Below, piece after piece: positions 1,316-59,425 of a stretch of DNA of 64,000 nt. The notes under the pieces were generated by a model that saw nothing but the letters and a program-made list of their open reading frames with translations, did no database searches and had not been told where the DNA came from. The stretch covers positions 928,001 through 992,000 of the forward strand of contig OZ244587.1 of the NCBI GenBank assembly GCA_965218095.1, in the 5' to 3' direction. Each line of letters starts with the position of its first letter. Positions within the stretch are counted from its first letter, which is position 1. The translations under genes and the position numbers were made by a program. This DNA comes from Candidatus Poribacteria bacterium. GTDB lineage: Bacteria > Poribacteria > WGA-4E > PCPOR2b.

Positions 1316-4300
1316 GTGGAATTTACCCTAAACCAGAAAAAAGCGCATGATCTCAATCGTCACATCAGCGTGACCGCTGGGGCGGGGTCCGGGAAAACAG
1401 CGGTATTGGTTCACCGATACCTCAAGATCTTGCTTGAAAAGAATCTGCGTCCCAATCAAGTTGTAGCAATCACGTTTACCGAGAAAGCCGCAGCTAAATT
1501 GAAGCAGCGCATTGTTCGGGAGATCAACGCGAGGTTAGAAGAAGGGAATCACAGCACAAAATTAGAGGCAATCAAGGCCGGAATGATCTCTGCACAGATC
1601 TCGACGATCCATTCATTTTGTGCACGCATTCTGCGAGAATATCCTGTTGAAGCGGGCGTTGACGCTGGCTTCAATGTACTCCAAAGGATCGAGCAACAGT
1701 TTATCCTCAATGAGATCATCGATTCAACGCTTAAGTCGATCGCTGACCGACCAGCAGGTGACGCAATGCGTGAAAAACTTGCTGACCTGCTGCGGATATT
1801 TGGAAAGAGGCGACTTGAGGAGCGCTTATACCAACTGGTTTCTCAGCGTGAGGCTGTTGATCGACTGATACGTGATTTGTACAATCTGACAGATGCAGAG
1901 GTACTGGATTATTGGCACGAGTTTGCACAAGCGAAATTGTTGCAGAGTCTAAGCGATCAGTTTCCCATTGAGCGTTGGCTGCACTGTCTGGACACAGTAT
2001 TGGTAGTCGTTAAGGGGAAGAACGCAGCGAAGGTTCGAGAACTGGCGGCTCGGATTCAGCCGGATCTGGGAGCGCAAGATGCGATTTCGATTCTCGGTGA
2101 GATTGCCCCCCTCCTGTTGACCCAAAAGGGAGAGATCAGCAAACGCGATTTTATTGGCGCCCGTGTCAAAACTGACGAGATCGAAGCGGAAATCGATTTC
2201 CTTGTCTGTGCTGCGAACCACTTTCAATCCTTCCCGGCTTTCACTGATGACGATGTCCTGCTCATTCGCGTCACTCGCCCACTACTGGCAATCTATGATC
2301 AGATCCAACATGTCTACGAACGCCATAAACTCCAACAGGGACAACTCGATTTTGATGACCTGCAGATTAAGGTCAGGGATCTGTTGCAGAATGAGTCAAT
2401 CTGTGCACGACTGGTCCAAAGATACCCTTACATCATGGTTGACGAGTATCAGGACACCAACCGCTTGCAGTACGAGATTCTCAAGCCGCTGATTTCCGAT
2501 TTCCAATTGGGGAACCTGTTCATCGTGGGCGATCAGAAGCAGAGTATCTATGGATTTCGCGGGGCAGATGTGCGTGTGTTTCACCAAACACGACAGGAAA
2601 TGACTGCGTATCAATCCCAATACCGAGGGCATCAGGACGAGTTTGTGTGGTATGATGAAGAACTCCAGGCTAATGATTCGGAAAAACGTGGTGACATCCA
2701 TCTGCCTGAAAACTTTCGCCTGCTCCGAAACCTCGTCGGTTGCATCAATCTGGTCTTTCAGCCACTTATGGAGACAGCAGGGGTGAACGAGTTTGAGGTA
2801 GTCTATGAGCCGCTGATCAAAGGGAGAGCCACTGATCAACCCGGCGATGTAGAGCTCATCATCGGTTCAAAAGGGCAAGCCGGCAGCCATCTGCAGCCTC
2901 CCATAGACGAAAATGAGTTAATCGGGGCACGCATTCGCCAACTGATTGGGGCGAGTGCAATGATTTGGGAGCGTAATGGCGATGAGGAGACTCCCCGTCC
3001 GATCCGATATGGCGACATTGCTATCCTTATCCGCAGCCGTACCCACTTACCCGAGATCGAGTCTGCCTTGCTCAATGCAGAAATTCCGTACAAAATCACG
3101 GGGGGCATCGGGTTTTATCAGCGGCAGGAAATTTACGATATTGGTAACTACCTGCAATTCCTCGTCAACCCTGATGACGATGTGGCACTCGCCGGGGTTC
3201 TCCGCGCACCGTTCTTTGGAATTTCGGATGTGGAGTTGTACGAAATCTCGCAGCGGCCGGAACCTCGATCATTCTGGCAAAAGGTCCAAACCTACACCGC
3301 TGAACGAATCAGCAAATCATATAATACACAATACACAATACCCGATACGCATCACATTTCCTCCGATTCTCCCTCCTTCCAATCTCCAATCTTTTATGCC
3401 GTCGAGACTTTGCGACATCACCAGGAGATCTGTCATCGCCTGCCGATCAGCAGGCTTATCCGCAAGATTGTCAACGACACCAGCATGGTTGGGGTACTTC
3501 CTGTTGGGCAGCAGGGCAAGCAGCGGTGGGCGAATTACGAAAAGCTGTTAGATATTGCGAGGGAGTTTGAGAGCGCAGGGTTCACGGATTTGTTTGATTT
3601 CCTAGAGCGGTTGAATCTGCTAATCGAGGAGGAGGAACGCGAAGGACAAGCCACAACACAGTTGACGGAGGATACCGTGCAGGTGATGACTGTCCACGCT
3701 GCGAAAGGGTTTGAGTTTCCGGTTGTGATCCTTCCACACCTCGATCGGCGATTTCGATACGATTCGGAGCCGTTCATCGATGACGTGCTCGGTATCAGTT
3801 TGAGTCCCACAGATCCGGAGAATGGCTACCAACAGAGTGAACCAACCGCTACACAGTTGATGCAGAACCGAGCAAAACAACGAACAGATGCAGAGGAAAA
3901 GCGGCTCTTCTATGTGGCAGCAACCCGCGCCCGCGATCGCCTCGTCCTGTCGGGGACGCTCGATTGGCGGGGAAACGCGGGAGGTTGGTTCGGTTGGCTG
4001 CTTGCCACATTGGGGTTCTCAGGGATGCCGCATGTCACTCGCGATCTCGATTCTATCGGGGAGGATGAAATCCAACATCCTGTCACAATCGAAGCCTTGT
4101 CGGGGGCTGGGACCACACCGATCTCCTTTGATCTACCGATTCGCATTATTAAATCCCTCGATGCGCTCGATTTCGTTGAGGAGGACACGCCCGCGCCACC
4201 GCCGCCGGCCGGGTTTCCAGCGTTCCACGTCGATTCATTGCGTCCTTCCCCTGTCAGCGAAACCTTCTCGGTGACGCAACTTGCAACGTATGCGCACTGC

Positions 4301-13492: not shown

Positions 13493-14031
13493 TTATACGG
13501 TCACGTATCATTTTTTGTCTTTCCAATAAGATTGGAAGAACGTCTATTTCAAAATGAGATTCAGGTTCGGATTTTGTAACAATGGCACCCGTTGTTCCTG
13601 TTATTTTGATTTTTATGACTGAACTTATTGCGGGTAGTTTCTTGGAAGTCTAATAGAGCGCAGAGAAGAATTTCCTCGTTAAGGTGCAAGATATTCTTCA
13701 CTTTTTAGATGGTCAGCCTAAGGCGTTACGCACTTCTTGATCAAGCCTCTCTGCACCTGCATCTTGAATCCTGATCATGACACACGATACAAGTCGATGA
13801 GCAGTCGGCACCCCTGATCCATCGGGGATGCAGATAAATCGTGAAAGACTGGAACTAACTGCGTAACTCCTATCCCTTTTAAGTTTCTGAGCTTAACATA
13901 AATTTACATTGTAGCACACTAGATGATAAAAGGCAAATGAAATCAAGTACTCCTCTAATCATTATAAATCGGGTTCAGCGGTCTGTCAACACCTGTTGAT
14001 CCAAAGCGGGTAATTTTTGTTGATAATTCTC

Positions 14032-15353: not shown

Positions 15354-15673
15354 AGGCTGTGGGGAAATGTCTGTGTCCTCTTATTTCCGCGTGTGTCTCC
15401 TACTGGTTCGTAAGTTCGACCTTGGGTTTATGGAGTGCAAGGTGATGAAGACTAAAAAATCAATCCGGTAATCGAAACGCCTTGAACTGAGGTTCAGACG
15501 AATCACTCAAGTTCACTCGAAGTAGATTAACACGTAGTCTTAGTCGTCTCAAAAGGACAGTCGCTAAAGTGTAATTGACGAAATAAATTTCCAACGATTA
15601 TCTTGATCTTCTTTGTCCCAACACAAATTTTGTACTCCAAATGAGCCCACCGATTTCTTACACTTAATAGGAC

Positions 15674-16300
15674 TTACGCAAGCTCCATACGAATCGCAGG
15701 AGATTTGAGTTGTTGTCGTAAATACTCCTCCAACACTCCGTGTTTGACCTGATAAATGGTTTGCTGGGTCTGATACGCCACGTGCTCGAGCCGAATCCAA
15801 ACGAATAATGCACAACCAATATGGTTGCGAACAAACCGTGCCACTCGGCATTGACAACCTTCAACTCTTGTCAACTGTTTGGCTTGCCGGTGAAATTGCT
15901 CAATCTTCCAGCGCTAGTTACACGCCTGTTGTGCAACCGAAGTGTCGTTTTGAGCCAAGTCGTTGGCCACAACATAATCCGTGCGTCTGTTAGAAGACGC
16001 GACCCAGAAAAGTTTCACCCCCGATCTTATCGGGATTCAGAGCACCTTGTGATGCTTGGGAAATCCGCTGATTTTGAGAAGTTTCCCGCGTCGGATTTCG
16101 GTCTCACTCCACTGCAATCCATCAACACACGGGTAAGGCTTTTGCGCATTGGAATCATCCACCCCGATAAGATCGGGATTCGAAGCAACCTGACGATTGG
16201 ATTTCAGCGGGCAATAGTAATGTTTTCGGAGCCGCTCAATGTGTATCATCAAATCTTTGGTGGCATACCAGCAATCCATAAGGAGAGTTGCTTGTGATAA
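15674..16300 (-). pseudogene. IS701-family transposase, 3' half only
   Basis: LLMDCWYAT...YYCPLKSNRQV...RWKIEQFHRQAKQLT...CQCR...RNHIGCA; internal stops and two 27-nt insertions. Confidence 0.8.
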
Positions 16301-16304
16301 ACTA

Positions 16305-17135
16305 GGTTCTGTTGACATTTCAAGGGAGCCATATAAGAGTGGCGACAAAGCTGAGAAATCCAAAATAACGGACAGCTAGCTTCTCAAACCGAGAGACAAA
16401 CCGAGAGAAGATACGACGATACCATTTTATCTTGTTGATGAAACATTCAACCCGATGTCTCTCTTTGTATAAGTGTTTGTCATACGTTCTTTGGTCAACA
16501 CGATGACTTTTTGGCGGTATCACCGCAATCGCTCCATTCGCCTCAATAACGGCGATAAAAGCGTCCGAATCGTACCCCTTGTCTCCAATCACATATTCAC
16601 TGTTATATCCGATTATCAACCCTTCCGCCTCAGTTATGTCATGTCTCTGACCGGGTGTCAGATGAATTCTTAGGGAATTGCCTAGTCCGTTAACTGTGAT
16701 GTGAATTTTTGTACTGAAACCGCCCCGAGACCGACCTAATGCTTGGTTTTCAGTGCCACCGTTTTTTTAAGGCACCAGCCGCACACGGGTGAGCGCGGCA
16801 GATGGTACTGTCCACAATAAGCGACTCGATATCGGGGTCAGAGGCAAAGTGGGGGGGCATCTGTGTGAAGATACCTTTGTCGCACCACCGAGCAAACCGC
16901 TTGTAGCGGGTGTTCCATTTGCCATAGGTGTCTGGTAGAAGTTTCCATTGAGCACCGCTACGAGTCACCCACAGGACGGCTTCGACGAAGCGGCGTGTAG
17001 CAGCTTCGTCGCCAACATAGATGGTGGGACAGCTAAGAAGAAACCGGTATATCTTATTCCATTGTTCATCAGGTAAGGTTATTGGCGTCATTCTTCTATT
17101 ATGCCACAACCTTATACTCAAATGTCAACAGAACC
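16305..17135 (-). mobile_element. IS5-family (IS427-like) element, ~830 bp
   Basis: ta-GGTTCTGTTGACATTT ... AAATGTCAACAGAACC-ta. Confidence 0.9.
16320..17091 (-). CDS. IS5-family transposase in two frames joined at an A7 tract (16762-16768; orfB is +1)
   Basis: orfA: RRFVEAVLWVTRSGAQWKLLP...DSTICRAHPCAAGA. orfB is open from 16766: ALGRSRGGFSTKIH...GDKGYDS...YKERHRVECFINKIK. Confidence 0.85.
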
Positions 17136-20300: not shown

Positions 20301-23300
20301 CCTGATAATTTCCAATCTTCAGTCCTCAATCTTCAATCTTCGATCTCTAATTTTCAATTGGCTTCTCTGGATGAATTCTTTCCCCAAATCTCTCAGCTTG
20401 GGGGGCGTTTTGATCTCAAAGCACAGATTACAGGTGACCTGTCTCAGCCGGAGTTAATCGCCTCGATTCATGTGGCTCAAGGAACGATGCAACTCCTGGA
20501 TTTCCCACAACCGGTTGAGAGTTTGGAAGTCAACCTCCAGGTGTCGGGCGGGCAGAAGTCGTCACCTGAGTTAGTCACAATCGATCTGAAATTGGCTGAT
20601 TGGCAGCTTGGGGGTGGGCAGTATCATGCACAGGGGGATTGGCGTTTACCCAAAACAGAAGATTCTCTCCTCCGATCCAGAGATCGGAGTCTCGGACTCT
20701 CAGTTTACCGGAGGGGAGTTAGTGGAGGTCGATTGTCCCCCGCGAAGGGAGATTTCCCTAACCCTTCCTCAGATAAGCGGGGGAATCAGCCGGAAGCCTC
20801 ATTGCGCTCAATTCTTGATGCTCTGGAAGATAACGATTCCGTTGCGTTTCGGCTTCAACTTGATGGCACGGACGTGAATCTCATAGGGCTGGTGGACTAC
20901 GTAATGGGGCGAGATATTCCCAATATTGAGGGCAGAGTCGATATGACGCTTGAGCTCCAGGGGAGCGGTTACCGTCCGGATTTGGTGTCCGCAGCCCTTG
21001 TGTGTGATGATTTGCATATCAACATCAAGGATCGCGAGGTGCAGAATCTGGATGAAATCCACTTCCGTTTTGCAGATGGGGAGCTCAAGGTCGAACCACT
21101 TCAGATTGGAGGAGAAGACACAACCTGGCTCAATGCCGCAGGAACTATCGATGTCGATGGCAATATGGATTTTCTCCTGGAATTCGATCGTCTGCCATAC
21201 GCTGTGCTGATACCGGCAGTTACACTGACGCTCTTCGATCAATCCCTCCTTCAGTTGGACGGTAATCTAACCAGTCAGATTCAGGTGCAGGGTAATCTCG
21301 CGCATCCGATCATCATGGCAAAGTGGGAATCAGACGGTCGCCTTGGAAATGCCAAACTCAAGGATGTTGGATATGCAAACTATCAAGAGAGATTGCTTGT
21401 GGTGCGGAACACACAACGGATTGCTGGCGTAAGCAATTATTTAGATGTGTCCGGCAGAATTCCGATTAATCTTGCCTTTCAACCGCTAAATCTTCCGGAT
21501 CGATTTTTGAATCTACCTATTGACTTGCGAATGCGTGGTCAGCGCATCCCCCTGACCCCCCTTGCTTTGCTGTTTTACCCCTTGATTGAGGAGGCCATCG
21601 GTACTGCCGACATAGATCTTAAAATACAGGGGACAACAGCTTCGCCTTACCCGCAAGGGAAACTGTCCGTTTGGGATGGTATGCTGAAACCAACCGGTTT
21701 TGATACGCCCATTTCACAGGGGAGGATTGAATTGGTGGCGGACAGAGGAGAAATTCGCATCCCAAAACTCAGTTTTCAGATCGGCCAGGGGAAGTATGAC
21801 GCTGAAGTCAAATTGCGGATGAATGGACTTACCGCAACACATTTCGAGGTAAGTCGGTTCAAGGTCAACAAAGCAAGAATTTCTGACTTTGCTCGCGACC
21901 TCTCAACGGCGGAAACTACCTCTGATCCCGATATGTCCCGATGGGCTTGGGATTCAAAACAACCCCGACGGATCGGGGCAGAACCCGCCCCGATTCATCG
22001 GGGCTCTTCGGCAACTCAATCTGGGGATTTGAATGGATATATTACGGCGGAAGCCAGTTTGAACATCCCGGTAGATCAGTTTATCATCCCCGGTGAAACC
22101 GCATGGGCTCCCAAACTGATTACTCCATTCAATCCACCAAATGTGATTAAGTATGTAACGGGCAAGTTAAATATTCAGAATATCCTGGTGGAGGGCTTAG
22201 GCTACCAGATCCGGAACCCCAGATCGATTGAAATTCAACTTGCAAACCAGAGATTAAGCCTGAAAGATGGATTTATCTTAGAAGATCAGAAGCTAGCAGT
22301 AGACGATGCAAAGCGCCTTCGAGTGGCAGGCTTCGGAAGCTGGGAGCTTGGCAAAAAGTTGCTCTTTCACATCGGAATGAGAAATTTCGATCTCGGCTTT
22401 ATTTCAGGCTTCCTTCCGGATGCTTATGCCGTTCGTGGTTTTCTTAACGCATCGCTCGATATACGGGGGACGGATGCAGAACCGAAAATCGATTTCACGT
22501 GGGAAACTCCAGAACTATGGATTAACCAAGCGGAGGTCGATCAGTTTACCGGTAGTGTGGTGTATGAAGGTCGGAAGATACGGTTCGGTGGAAAACAAAA
22601 CAGTGAGGCGCGTTTTTCCATTGGAAGAAATCGTGCCAGTCTGTCCGGGCTGATTCCATTTCACTTGTCTCTGCTCGACCTCAAAGCTGAATCACTATCA
22701 CAGGATACTGAGGAAAAATCAGAGAAGATTGAAGGGAGATTAGATATAGTAATCGAAAATTTAGACTTCCTACCGCTCATTATACCCCAATTCGCCTTTT
22801 CGAACGGCGCCGGCGGAATTAATGTAACCCTTGGCGGTCAGATTCACTCACCGAAGCTCAAAGGGTTCGCAGATCTGAAAGACCTCGCCTTCGAGTTGCC
22901 AGATTCGCACATCAAGGTGGAGGATGCCAGTGTGAATCTTGATTTTACAAACAACAACGTGAATATTCAGCGCATCGAAGGGATTTTGAATGGTGGAACA
23001 TTCGATATCCACGGTGCGATACAATCCAATTGGCTAAATGTACAGCGTATGGATGTTTTCGCCAAATTGAGCGGTGGTACTACTTTTGAACAAACCGGTC
23101 TTTACTGGGTCAGGTGTCAGAAAGTTGATTTGGAGATGAAGGGTCCTGTCACGACAAATGGAAGTCTAAACCTCCCACCATTAAGCGGCTCAATCCGTAT
23201 TGATGAAGGACGATACGAGCAACACTGGAAGCAGTTGGTCGAAAGCTGGATTGATAAAGAAGCGGAGGTGCAGTTTGAAGTATGGTTCGATTACCCGGTC

Positions 23301-36326: not shown

Positions 36327-36510
36327 TACAACTCCGCTTCGCGAGAGTCGCGGTGAAGCCGGATCTGCCCCGATCCATCGGGGAGTACGCTCCTACTCCC
36401 CATGTTCAGTGCCATGAGCAAGCCCTTCCGCGCTCCTGCCCATGCTCGCCCAAAGTGCCATACGGCTTCCCGGAAATGGAGAAAGTTCGAGAAGAAGCGA
36501 CTGGAGTTGC
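36327..36510 (-). ncRNA. Candidate structured non-coding RNA, family unassigned
   Basis: Nested helices GCAACUCC/GGAGUUGU, CGCUUC/GAAGCG, GAAGCCG/CGGCUUC, UGGGCGAGC/GCUUGCUCA, GGGAGUA/UACUCCC; G-U pairs favour the minus strand; GC-rich island between AT-rich flanks. Confidence 0.6.
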
Positions 36511-59116: not shown

Positions 59117-59425
59117 AATGAGCCAATAGGTGCATAGCCCGGAGTGTTTCAAACATTTTTCGCCCCGATAACTCTGTCTCGTTTGAGCTATCGGGGGATT
59201 TATCAACATCGCTGAAAAAGTTGTATCAGTTAGCACTTCCAAAGCGGATTGAGTGATAATCAGCGAATGAAATGAATTCTGTACAAACTCAACTAGAATC
59301 TGCATGACAGGAACCACTCGGTGTGGGCTTGTGCAACAGCCTGAACCTGAAGCAGATAATCACTTGCTACTGTTGCGAATTTGTGTATAAACTGGAATTG
59401 TATCAACAGAAATAGGAGGTTTGAA

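Follow-up and report, generated by a model that had tools for sequence, protein, structure and literature searches.

Two 27-nt hairpin-forming segments within an IS701-like transposase gene of a Candidatus Poribacteria bacterium belong to a family of very short palindromic units that is dispersed throughout its genome. The family probably comprises mini-repeats of the REP or small dispersed repeat (SDR) kind that were moved by an HUH enzyme and are now fossil in this genome. For the two inserts themselves we favour, with moderate confidence, the more specific reading that they are lineage-specific REP-like mini-repeats which an HUH enzyme of the RAYT or IS200/IS605-like type would have copied and which are now fossil. 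Both are located in a stretch of 64,000 nt (hereafter the window) of a genome consisting of a single 6.35-Mb contig with 50% G+C, coded G000 in genome comparisons.

The initial annotation had described two 27-nt palindromic inserts in this gene, and both were recovered at the place reported. The inserts, their host and the adjacent mobile element have the following positions in the window:

15664..16302, minus strand: C-terminal fragment of an IS701-family transposase, a truncated pseudogene and host of both inserts
16020..16046, minus strand: insert 1, a 27-nt unit made up of a 12-nt tail GGTGCTCTGAAT and a 15-nt hairpin CCCGAT-AAG-ATCGGG, flanked by CAA and GGTG
16163..16189, minus strand: insert 2, a 27-nt unit made up of a 12-nt tail GTTGCTTCGAAT and a 15-nt hairpin CCCGAT-CTT-ATCGGG, flanked by CAG and GTGG
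16303..17124, minus strand: IS5-family element with two overlapping ORFs (NF033580), abutting the IS701 fragment

On the minus strand, insert 2 reads ...CGTCAG GTTGCTTCGAAT CCCGAT CTT ATCGGG GTGGATG... and insert 1 reads ...CACAA GGTGCTCTGAAT CCCGAT AAG ATCGGG GGTGAAAC... The core said to be common to both, GAATCCCGAT-NNN-ATCGGGG, is exact at 16019-16038 and 16162-16181 (minus strand), and the differing tails together with the inverted loop (AAG versus CTT) agree with the proposal that the two were inserted separately. Insert 2 could be placed in registers up to 3 nt apart (GGT) and insert 1 in registers up to 4 nt apart (GGTG), and the coordinates listed are those of the register that fits the family consensus. 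Insert 2 is in a benign frame and adds V-A-S-N-P-D-L-I-G after a Gln codon (Q|VASNPDLIG|V), while insert 1 reads VL*IPIRSG in the host frame and contains an in-frame TGA. As a single strand each unit folds into a 6-bp hairpin of -5.4 kcal/mol, with z scores against shuffled sequences of -1.5 and -2.5, a modest gain for so short a stretch.

Three lines of evidence identified both segments as insertions: (i) a paralogue about 70% identical to the IS701 gene (genome 2347619-2348175) is shorter by precisely 27 nt at both sites, and its two pieces match the NCBIfam profile NF049921 colinearly at positions 2-172 and 174-281 (E 5e-62 and 2e-30); (ii) the three open pieces of the window gene map to NF049921 positions 139-210, 211-243 and 246-317, the profile passing directly from 210 to 211 across insert 1; (iii) in an alignment with homologous full-length transposases, the best 120 of 275 matches at E<=1e-10, none of the 120 proteins had a residue in any of the nine columns of either insert. 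The profile scores of window and paralogue pieces are all below the whole-protein cut-off because the pieces are fragments. The refuting condition set in the initial annotation, namely intact homologues containing these residues, was therefore not borne out.

The upstream end of the IS701 fragment is cut by the IS5-family element, and a TAG nonsense codon interrupts the fragment at a position that is TGG in two other copies. The terminal ~100 nt of the IS5-family element gave more than 140 genome matches at 92-100% identity, which indicates a chromosome heavily loaded with this element. Two more IS701 copies, at genome positions 6250853 and 3784452, are 98% identical and have both inserts. In a fourth copy (genome 2599127-2599621) the 143 nt between the inserts are gone by recombination across the 20-nt repeat, so that the tail of insert 2 continues into insert 1 at its loop and right flank.

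Within the window, CCCGAT-N2-4-ATCGGG occurs four times versus 0.01 expected. Further members of the family were located as follows:

4034..4060, plus strand: degenerate 27-nt unit within addA, in frame, consisting of GTCACTCGCGAT and CTCGAT-TCT-ATCGGG
13813..13826, no strand given: intergenic hairpin with one stem mismatch, CCTGAT-CC-ATCGGG, likely a family member
21927..22025, plus strand: cluster in tamB with three hairpin cores at 21937-21951 (degenerate), 21964-21977 and 21989-22002
36362..36382, plus strand: intergenic unit of the 21-nt type, tail GATCTGC followed by CCCGAT-CC-ATCGGG

The tamB cluster contains an antisense tail of the 27-nt type at 21952-21963 and a sense tail of the 21-nt type at 21982-21988. 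The recurrences of the core noted earlier at 4046, 13812, 21963/21987 and 36368 are family members; the one at 59163-59196 has a 20-nt loop and turned out to be a singleton outside the family.

The over-representation of the core implied by the initial annotation was confirmed by a genome-wide count. Perfect copies of CCCGAT-N2-6-ATCGGG numbered 221 versus 0-2 for four scrambled control stems, and hairpins with one mismatch 284 versus 32-84. Sorted by loop length, there were 107 copies with 2 nt, 61 with 3 nt, two with 4 nt, 36 with 5 nt and 15 with 6 nt. Stem spacings above 6 nt were at a background of ~1.3 per nt except for two unrelated classes: that with a 10-nt loop is the interior of a repeated element, and that with a 19-nt loop belongs to TPR-like coding repeats with a period of 102 nt. 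The latter (CCCGAT-N19-ATCGGG every 102 nt at genome 3058359-3058665, 4131903-4132617 and 6200826-6201438) inflates naive motif counts.

In each unit, the hairpin CCCGAT-N2-6-ATCGGG with its 6-bp stem is preceded on its 5' side by 7-17 nt of non-palindromic tail. The tail is conserved on one side of the hairpin, and AAGTTGCTTTGAAT was present at 112 of 442 flank sides. Three types were distinguished. The 27-nt type (GTTGCTTTGAAT plus a 3-nt loop) has 69 tail-matched copies, 46 of them with loops of 3 nt, 13 with 2 nt and nine with 6 nt; the 24-nt type has an GTGCTTGCAT-like tail (30 copies) and the 21-nt type the tail AGCCTGC (36 copies). A search with nhmmer using the 27-nt type returned 71 matches with E<=1e-3, a number that rose to 117 with E<=1; a genome search with the tail only was swamped by chance matches. 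Loops of oriented copies are mostly CTT and in a few cases, including insert 1, AAG, for which a flip between the palindromic arms is the simplest reading. Gaps between neighbouring hairpins were below 200 nt in 51 of 504 cases versus ~8 expected, spread over 18-180 nt without a preferred spacing. Cumulative GC skew was too noisy to locate the origin or terminus for a replication-strand bias of the units. A CRISPR origin was rejected, as the arrays at genome 3424072, 3430572, 2101538 and 4772713 have unrelated repeats.

To find empty sites, 505 hairpin regions were compared with the genome itself by BLAST. A counterpart gapped at the hairpin was found for 33 of them, all pairs being just 67-84% identical. 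Among 15 filled and empty pairs that were aligned, the majority in non-coding repeats, clean gaps of 21 nt (eight pairs), 24 nt (two pairs), 27, 30, 33 and 35 nt were seen, and one pair was messy. Empty sites thus exist, both in the IS701 paralogue and in these mostly clean pairs. For the 27-nt type, 64 distinct contexts were compared, and position -3 was C in 55, -2 was A in 48, -1 was A in 38 or G in 19, and +1 was G in 62; the target flank of the 24- and 21-nt types is likewise CAR^G. As the empty sites keep CAR and G, these belong to the target. Units enter between CAR and G as discrete blocks with lengths of 21, 24, 27, 30 or 33 nt, and there is no consistent target duplication, since the junctions share just 1-4 nt. 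The direct GGT(G) repeat by which the inserts were said to be bounded holds at these two sites only and arises because in both IS701 targets CAR is followed by GTG, while the tail starts with G(T/G)TG; the general flanks are CAR^G.

Crude, ORF-based gene calls made for this analysis placed 133 of the 221 perfect hairpins (~60%) between genes, 78 within genes and 10 at their edges; the corresponding shares of 5000 random positions were 16%, 81% and 3%. Units land in intergenic DNA, in other repeats, in IS elements and in genes. The 27-nt type was oriented with transcription in 19 versus six cases between co-directional genes and in 10 versus three cases inside genes of more than 400 aa.

Coding copies of the 27-nt type were checked against orthologues from five relatives. 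Exactly 9 aa were absent at the insert AALSPDPIG of glycine--tRNA ligase (GlyQS) in both recovered orthologues of the sister genus g4, at VALNPDLIG of a GH3-like protein in both properly aligned g4 orthologues, and at AALSPDSIG of a SoxA-family protein in the one g4 orthologue that aligned properly. The AddA site (4034-4060) corresponds to a 9-aa gap in G002, the sole orthologue that aligned. The tamB cluster adds ~33 aa, which are absent from the orthologues of genus g5, G002 and G020. At these five sites, then, residues missing in relatives bear out the claim that copies occur in coding DNA. In two g4 genomes (G003 and G011, loci L013 and L014) the same spot of tamB holds a short insert of another kind, with tails of the GTTTCTTAAT type, and the position seems to be particularly prone to small insertions. 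A second IS701 family has an antisense 27-nt unit, in frame (PRSDRDSKQ), that was present in one of 120 homologues (best 120 of 275). Its five copies (genome 1079005, 3022989, 3851361, 5148966 and 5866445), one of which has a differing right flank beside the hairpin, all carry the unit, so this IS multiplied after acquiring it.

In long genes, all nine copies of the 27-nt type that lie in sense orientation share one frame, xALNPDxIG, and five of the nine directly follow a Gln codon (CAR). One of the two other sense frames contains TGA, and insert 1 is in this TGA frame. Preservation of the frame therefore looks like survival of tolerable insertions, that is, a result of selection and not of mechanism. 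The proposal that the element itself preserves the frame was accordingly abandoned, as was a length divisible by three as an intrinsic rule: 13 of the 69 copies with a 27-nt-type tail have a 2-nt loop and measure 26 nt, and in one of the empty-site pairs the gap is 35 nt.

The taxonomic range of the family was determined in 151 sampled genomes of the phylum; relatives of NadB, encoded in the window, are almost all from Candidatus Poribacteria MAGs. The motif TTGAATCCCGAT-N2-6-ATCGGG was present in 25 of these genomes, namely G000, 20 of 20 genomes of genus g4 (13-92 copies each), G001 (15 copies) and, as single matches, one genome of g5 and two of family f3. It was found in none of 100 genomes of family f2 and none of 15 from the other six families (f4-f9), and a reversed-pattern control gave no match in any sampled genome. 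By this sampling, the motif of tail plus hairpin is limited to one clade of one family.

Candidate mobilising enzymes were sought in G000 and in the sister genus. The Pfam family Y1_Tnp as a whole was uninformative because 28 of 31 relatives had matches. In G000, neither the four Pfam Y1_Tnp matches, one of which is IS200-like with other hairpins nearby, nor two further, weak tblastn matches have CCCGAT hairpins on both sides. Two of the four are bona fide RAYTs (NF047646, 124 and 167 bits; genome 626429-626902 and 6008890-6009357), each with other REPs of its own on its flanks, GGCGGGGC.. and GGTGGGGC.. (GGCGGGGCA..TGCCCCGCC and GGTGGGGC..GCCCCACC), of which the 9-mer and the 8-mer occur 84 and 259 times. 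Among 14 genes of G000 with hairpins on both sides, none was transposase-like when the first 200 aa were inspected by eye. The remaining Y1_Tnp match, a Y1-transposase-like ORF (genome 3422003-3422785), lies in an apparent CRISPR-cas locus beside the arrays at 3424072 and 3430572 and is followed by a long hairpin AGAAACCGAGTTTT..AAAACTCGGTTTCT, which also flanks Y1-like genes at the sister-genus loci L078, L081 and L085. A RAYT-like ORF of 174 aa (genome 249530-250051) has an internal repeat ..ATTRVALT.. / ..ATTRVAPT.., which suggests another small repeat inserted in frame.

In genus g4, an ORF of 152 aa matched NF047646 (REP_Tyr_transpos) with E 2.4e-20 and a score of 72.9 bits, slightly short of the 80 required by the cut-off. 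In G017, G018 and G013 it is flanked by units of the form GTAGTTG-CCYGAT-TT-ATCRGG, in direct arrays upstream and as inverted copies downstream. Orthologues of at least 75% identity were present in four of 10 g4 genomes, intact in these three and as a pseudogene with two stops in G003. No orthologue was found in G000 or G001, and the best tblastn matches of the protein in G000 were partial stretches of 22-34% identity. The co-occurrence of hairpin and RAYT sought in view of the initial annotation was hence observed in the sister genus, for the GTAG-headed variant only, and not in G000.

The four RAYT-bearing genomes have the four highest numbers of GTAG-headed units (204, 136 in G003, 119 and 100); the remaining g4 genomes have 91, 64, 31, 20, 19 and 18 (the last in G009), G000 has 10 and G001 none. 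Tail-type copies follow a different order: G017 92, G014 67, G009 61, G018 54, G015 44, G000 32, G013 28, G011 26, G003 25, G016 22, G007 15 and G001 15. As these counts do not track GTAG-unit counts or RAYT presence, the link between tail types and RAYT is based on the shared stem, and in g4 also the TT loop, and not on co-occurrence. The base after the unit is C for GTAG units and G for tail types, and the two may have differing cleavage contexts.

In the reading that we favour, an HUH tyrosine transposase of the RAYT or IS200/IS605 kind would copy the units as single-stranded hairpins, a step suggested by the sister genus, where a gene of this kind has GTAG-headed units with the same stem on either side. 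The cognate enzyme would have been lost from G000 with the copies remaining as fossils, which may still promote rearrangement, as in the IS701 copy that lacks the 143 nt between the inserts. Of the copies in genes, those in a tolerable frame alone persist (xALNPDxIG for the 27-nt type). Several points speak against the RAYT step: the 27-, 24- and 21-nt types, both inserts included, have no GTAG head beside the stem; the counts are at odds with it in G009 (61 tail-type, 18 GTAG, no RAYT), G001 (15 and 0, no RAYT) and G003 (25 and 136); the RAYT-like genes of G000 have no CCCGAT hairpins on their flanks; the 14 hairpin-flanked genes inspected by eye included no transposase-like one; and the bases that follow GTAG units and tail types differ.

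An alternative is that tail-type units are SDR-like and are moved by an agent other than the RAYT of the sister genus, be it another enzyme or an RNA- or repair-mediated route, which recognises the hairpin and CAR^G; the stem in common with the GTAG REPs would then reflect common ancestry or capture. We regard this as possible, though on the unlikely side. It would account for copy numbers that are decoupled from RAYT presence and GTAG-unit counts, with tail-type motifs but no GTAG units in G001, for the CAR^G flank of all three tail types versus the CT..C contexts of GTAG units, and for the G000-specific insertions in GlyQS, the GH3-like protein and TamB, which are younger than the split from the sister genus in a genome without such a RAYT. 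However, no candidate enzyme emerged from the 14 hairpin-flanked genes or the Y1 and tblastn matches of G000, loss of a RAYT with repeats remaining is known (PMC3733652), and the identical 6-bp stem, plus the identical TT loop in g4, argues for one recognising protein. A bolder version, which we consider doubtful, holds that a RAYT-independent, not yet recognised agent inserts a single hairpin plus tail at CAR^G. As self-propagating DNA that 'decorates' proteins in frame, the units (xALNPDxIG, 9 aa behind a Gln codon) would then be the smallest known and would still be spreading in RAYT-less Poribacteria.

It is very improbable that a larger IS or MITE with CCCGAT / ATCGGG as terminal inverted repeats (GTTGCTTTGAATCCCGAT...ATCGGG) left the units behind as scars or solo ends when it was excised or internally deleted. 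Variable loop lengths (2, 3, 5 and 6 nt) and the many units inside other repeats would suit such an origin, but no long element with these termini was found among spacings above 6 nt, which apart from the two unrelated classes were at background, the asymmetric conserved tail and uniform length per subfamily are unlike random deletion, and the units are cleanly absent from empty sites with no trace of target duplication. That the hairpins are immobile, made in place by template switching or selected at each locus as protein- or RNA-binding sites, is hardly credible: the intergenic enrichment and, for an RNA-level role, the 19 versus six orientation with transcription would agree with it, but identical 27-nt blocks occur in pseudogenes, IS elements and conserved enzymes, each with a precise empty site, and an Rfam search gave no family (a single match, E 0.7, was noise).

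The family can be compared with several known systems. REPs are palindromes of 20-40 bp, mostly GTAG/CGTC-tagged and intergenic and often associated with RAYTs; they can also be intragenic, single or grouped, and encode extra residues, among others in recBCD-type and tRNA-synthetase genes, and RAYT genes can vanish while repeats stay (Di Nocera et al. 2013, PMC3733652; REPs and REPtrons are also treated by Bertels & Rainey 2011, PMC3116915). The Poribacteria units resemble them in being small (21-33 nt), palindromic, present in high copy number, mostly intergenic and single or clustered, and in adding residues to some ORFs, in both cases also those of RecB-type repair proteins and tRNA synthetases. 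The 152-aa RAYT-like gene of g4 with its GTAG arrays has the classical REPtron arrangement outlined in PMC3733652. Unlike in REPs, however, the tails of the inserts and of most copies have no GTAG/CGTC tag by the stem, with just 10 GTAG-headed units in G000, and a RAYT flanked by the same repeats is absent from G000 and occurs in the sister genus for GTAG-headed units only. The units also differ from REPINs in having no inverted doublet at fixed spacing, and empty sites show single units.

Elements of the IS200/IS605 family such as IS608 and ISDra2 have hairpin-defined ends, insert 3' of a short specific sequence in an orientation-specific manner and make no target duplication; they have two different subterminal hairpins and carry genes. 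In the putative analogy, the Poribacteria units share with them the hairpin-defined end, the insertion 3' of CAR, the orientation specificity and the lack of target duplication, but have one hairpin and no gene. The SDRs of Nostoc and relatives, reportedly described by Elhai and colleagues in 2008, are said to be hairpins of 21-27 nt nested in each other, in other repeats and in genes, with no known enzyme. The Poribacteria units, at ~20-27 nt, hairpin-forming and nested in repeats and genes, are similar to SDRs as so described; they differ in the host phylum and in that a RAYT-flanking relative of the hairpin offers a concrete candidate mechanism here. Cyanobacterial small dispersed repeats are cited as ~20 bp in size and possibly mobile (PMC2884548; also PMC3116915).

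As had been proposed, the units are far smaller than MITEs, which measure roughly 50-500 bp versus 21-33 nt; in addition, no parent element and no consistent target duplication were found. The original report on Rickettsia palindromic elements is said to be that of Ogata and colleagues in 2000. These elements are ~150 bp long and inserted in frame in genes (PMC10969869). The Poribacteria units are likewise palindromic, in frame in unrelated genes including essential ones and translated into a conserved peptide, but far shorter (21-33 nt or 7-11 aa versus ~100-150 bp). The view that they are a novel kind of element was given up, given that accounts of 20-40-bp REPs, including intragenic ones (PMC3733652), and of ~20-bp SDRs (cited in PMC2884548) already exist. 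The family is set apart by untagged tails, single-unit insertion at CAR^G, a 9-aa coding module and the host phylum. A literature search returned no paper joining Poribacteria with REP, RAYT, REPIN or MITE, or with 'palindromic' outside CRISPR contexts.

REP/SDR-type mini-repeats are hereby extended to Candidatus Poribacteria. In the sponge-associated bacterium studied here, essential genes hold written-in blocks of 21-33 nt (glycyl-tRNA synthetase, TamB, AddA). The presence of tail-type, SDR-like units beside a classical GTAG-REP/RAYT system with the same hairpin provides a concrete means of testing how such tiny elements move. For annotation it is of relevance that units make lineage-specific loops of 7-11 aa, kill genes if the frame of insertion is wrong, and can be the cause of small deletions.

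Finally, the activity of the family in this genome was assessed with near-identical strain contigs from two other studies (X3 and X5), each 4-8 kb long and different at 11-43 letters. The contigs span four hairpins at two loci, the cluster in tamB and the 36369 hairpin, and had no indel there, although contigs can hide rare variants. Together with the 67-84% identity of filled and empty pairs, this speaks against the active mechanism postulated at the outset. The absence of strain polymorphism at the two loci, the age of the pairs and the missing RAYT point to present dormancy of the family in G000, following a period of activity later than the separation from genus g4. Differences that the strain contigs did show are the loss of 22 nt from the tamB-bamA intergenic region and, inside bamA, two tandem duplications of 12 nt (window 24126, 24676 and 26135); these are ordinary slippage unrelated to the hairpins.
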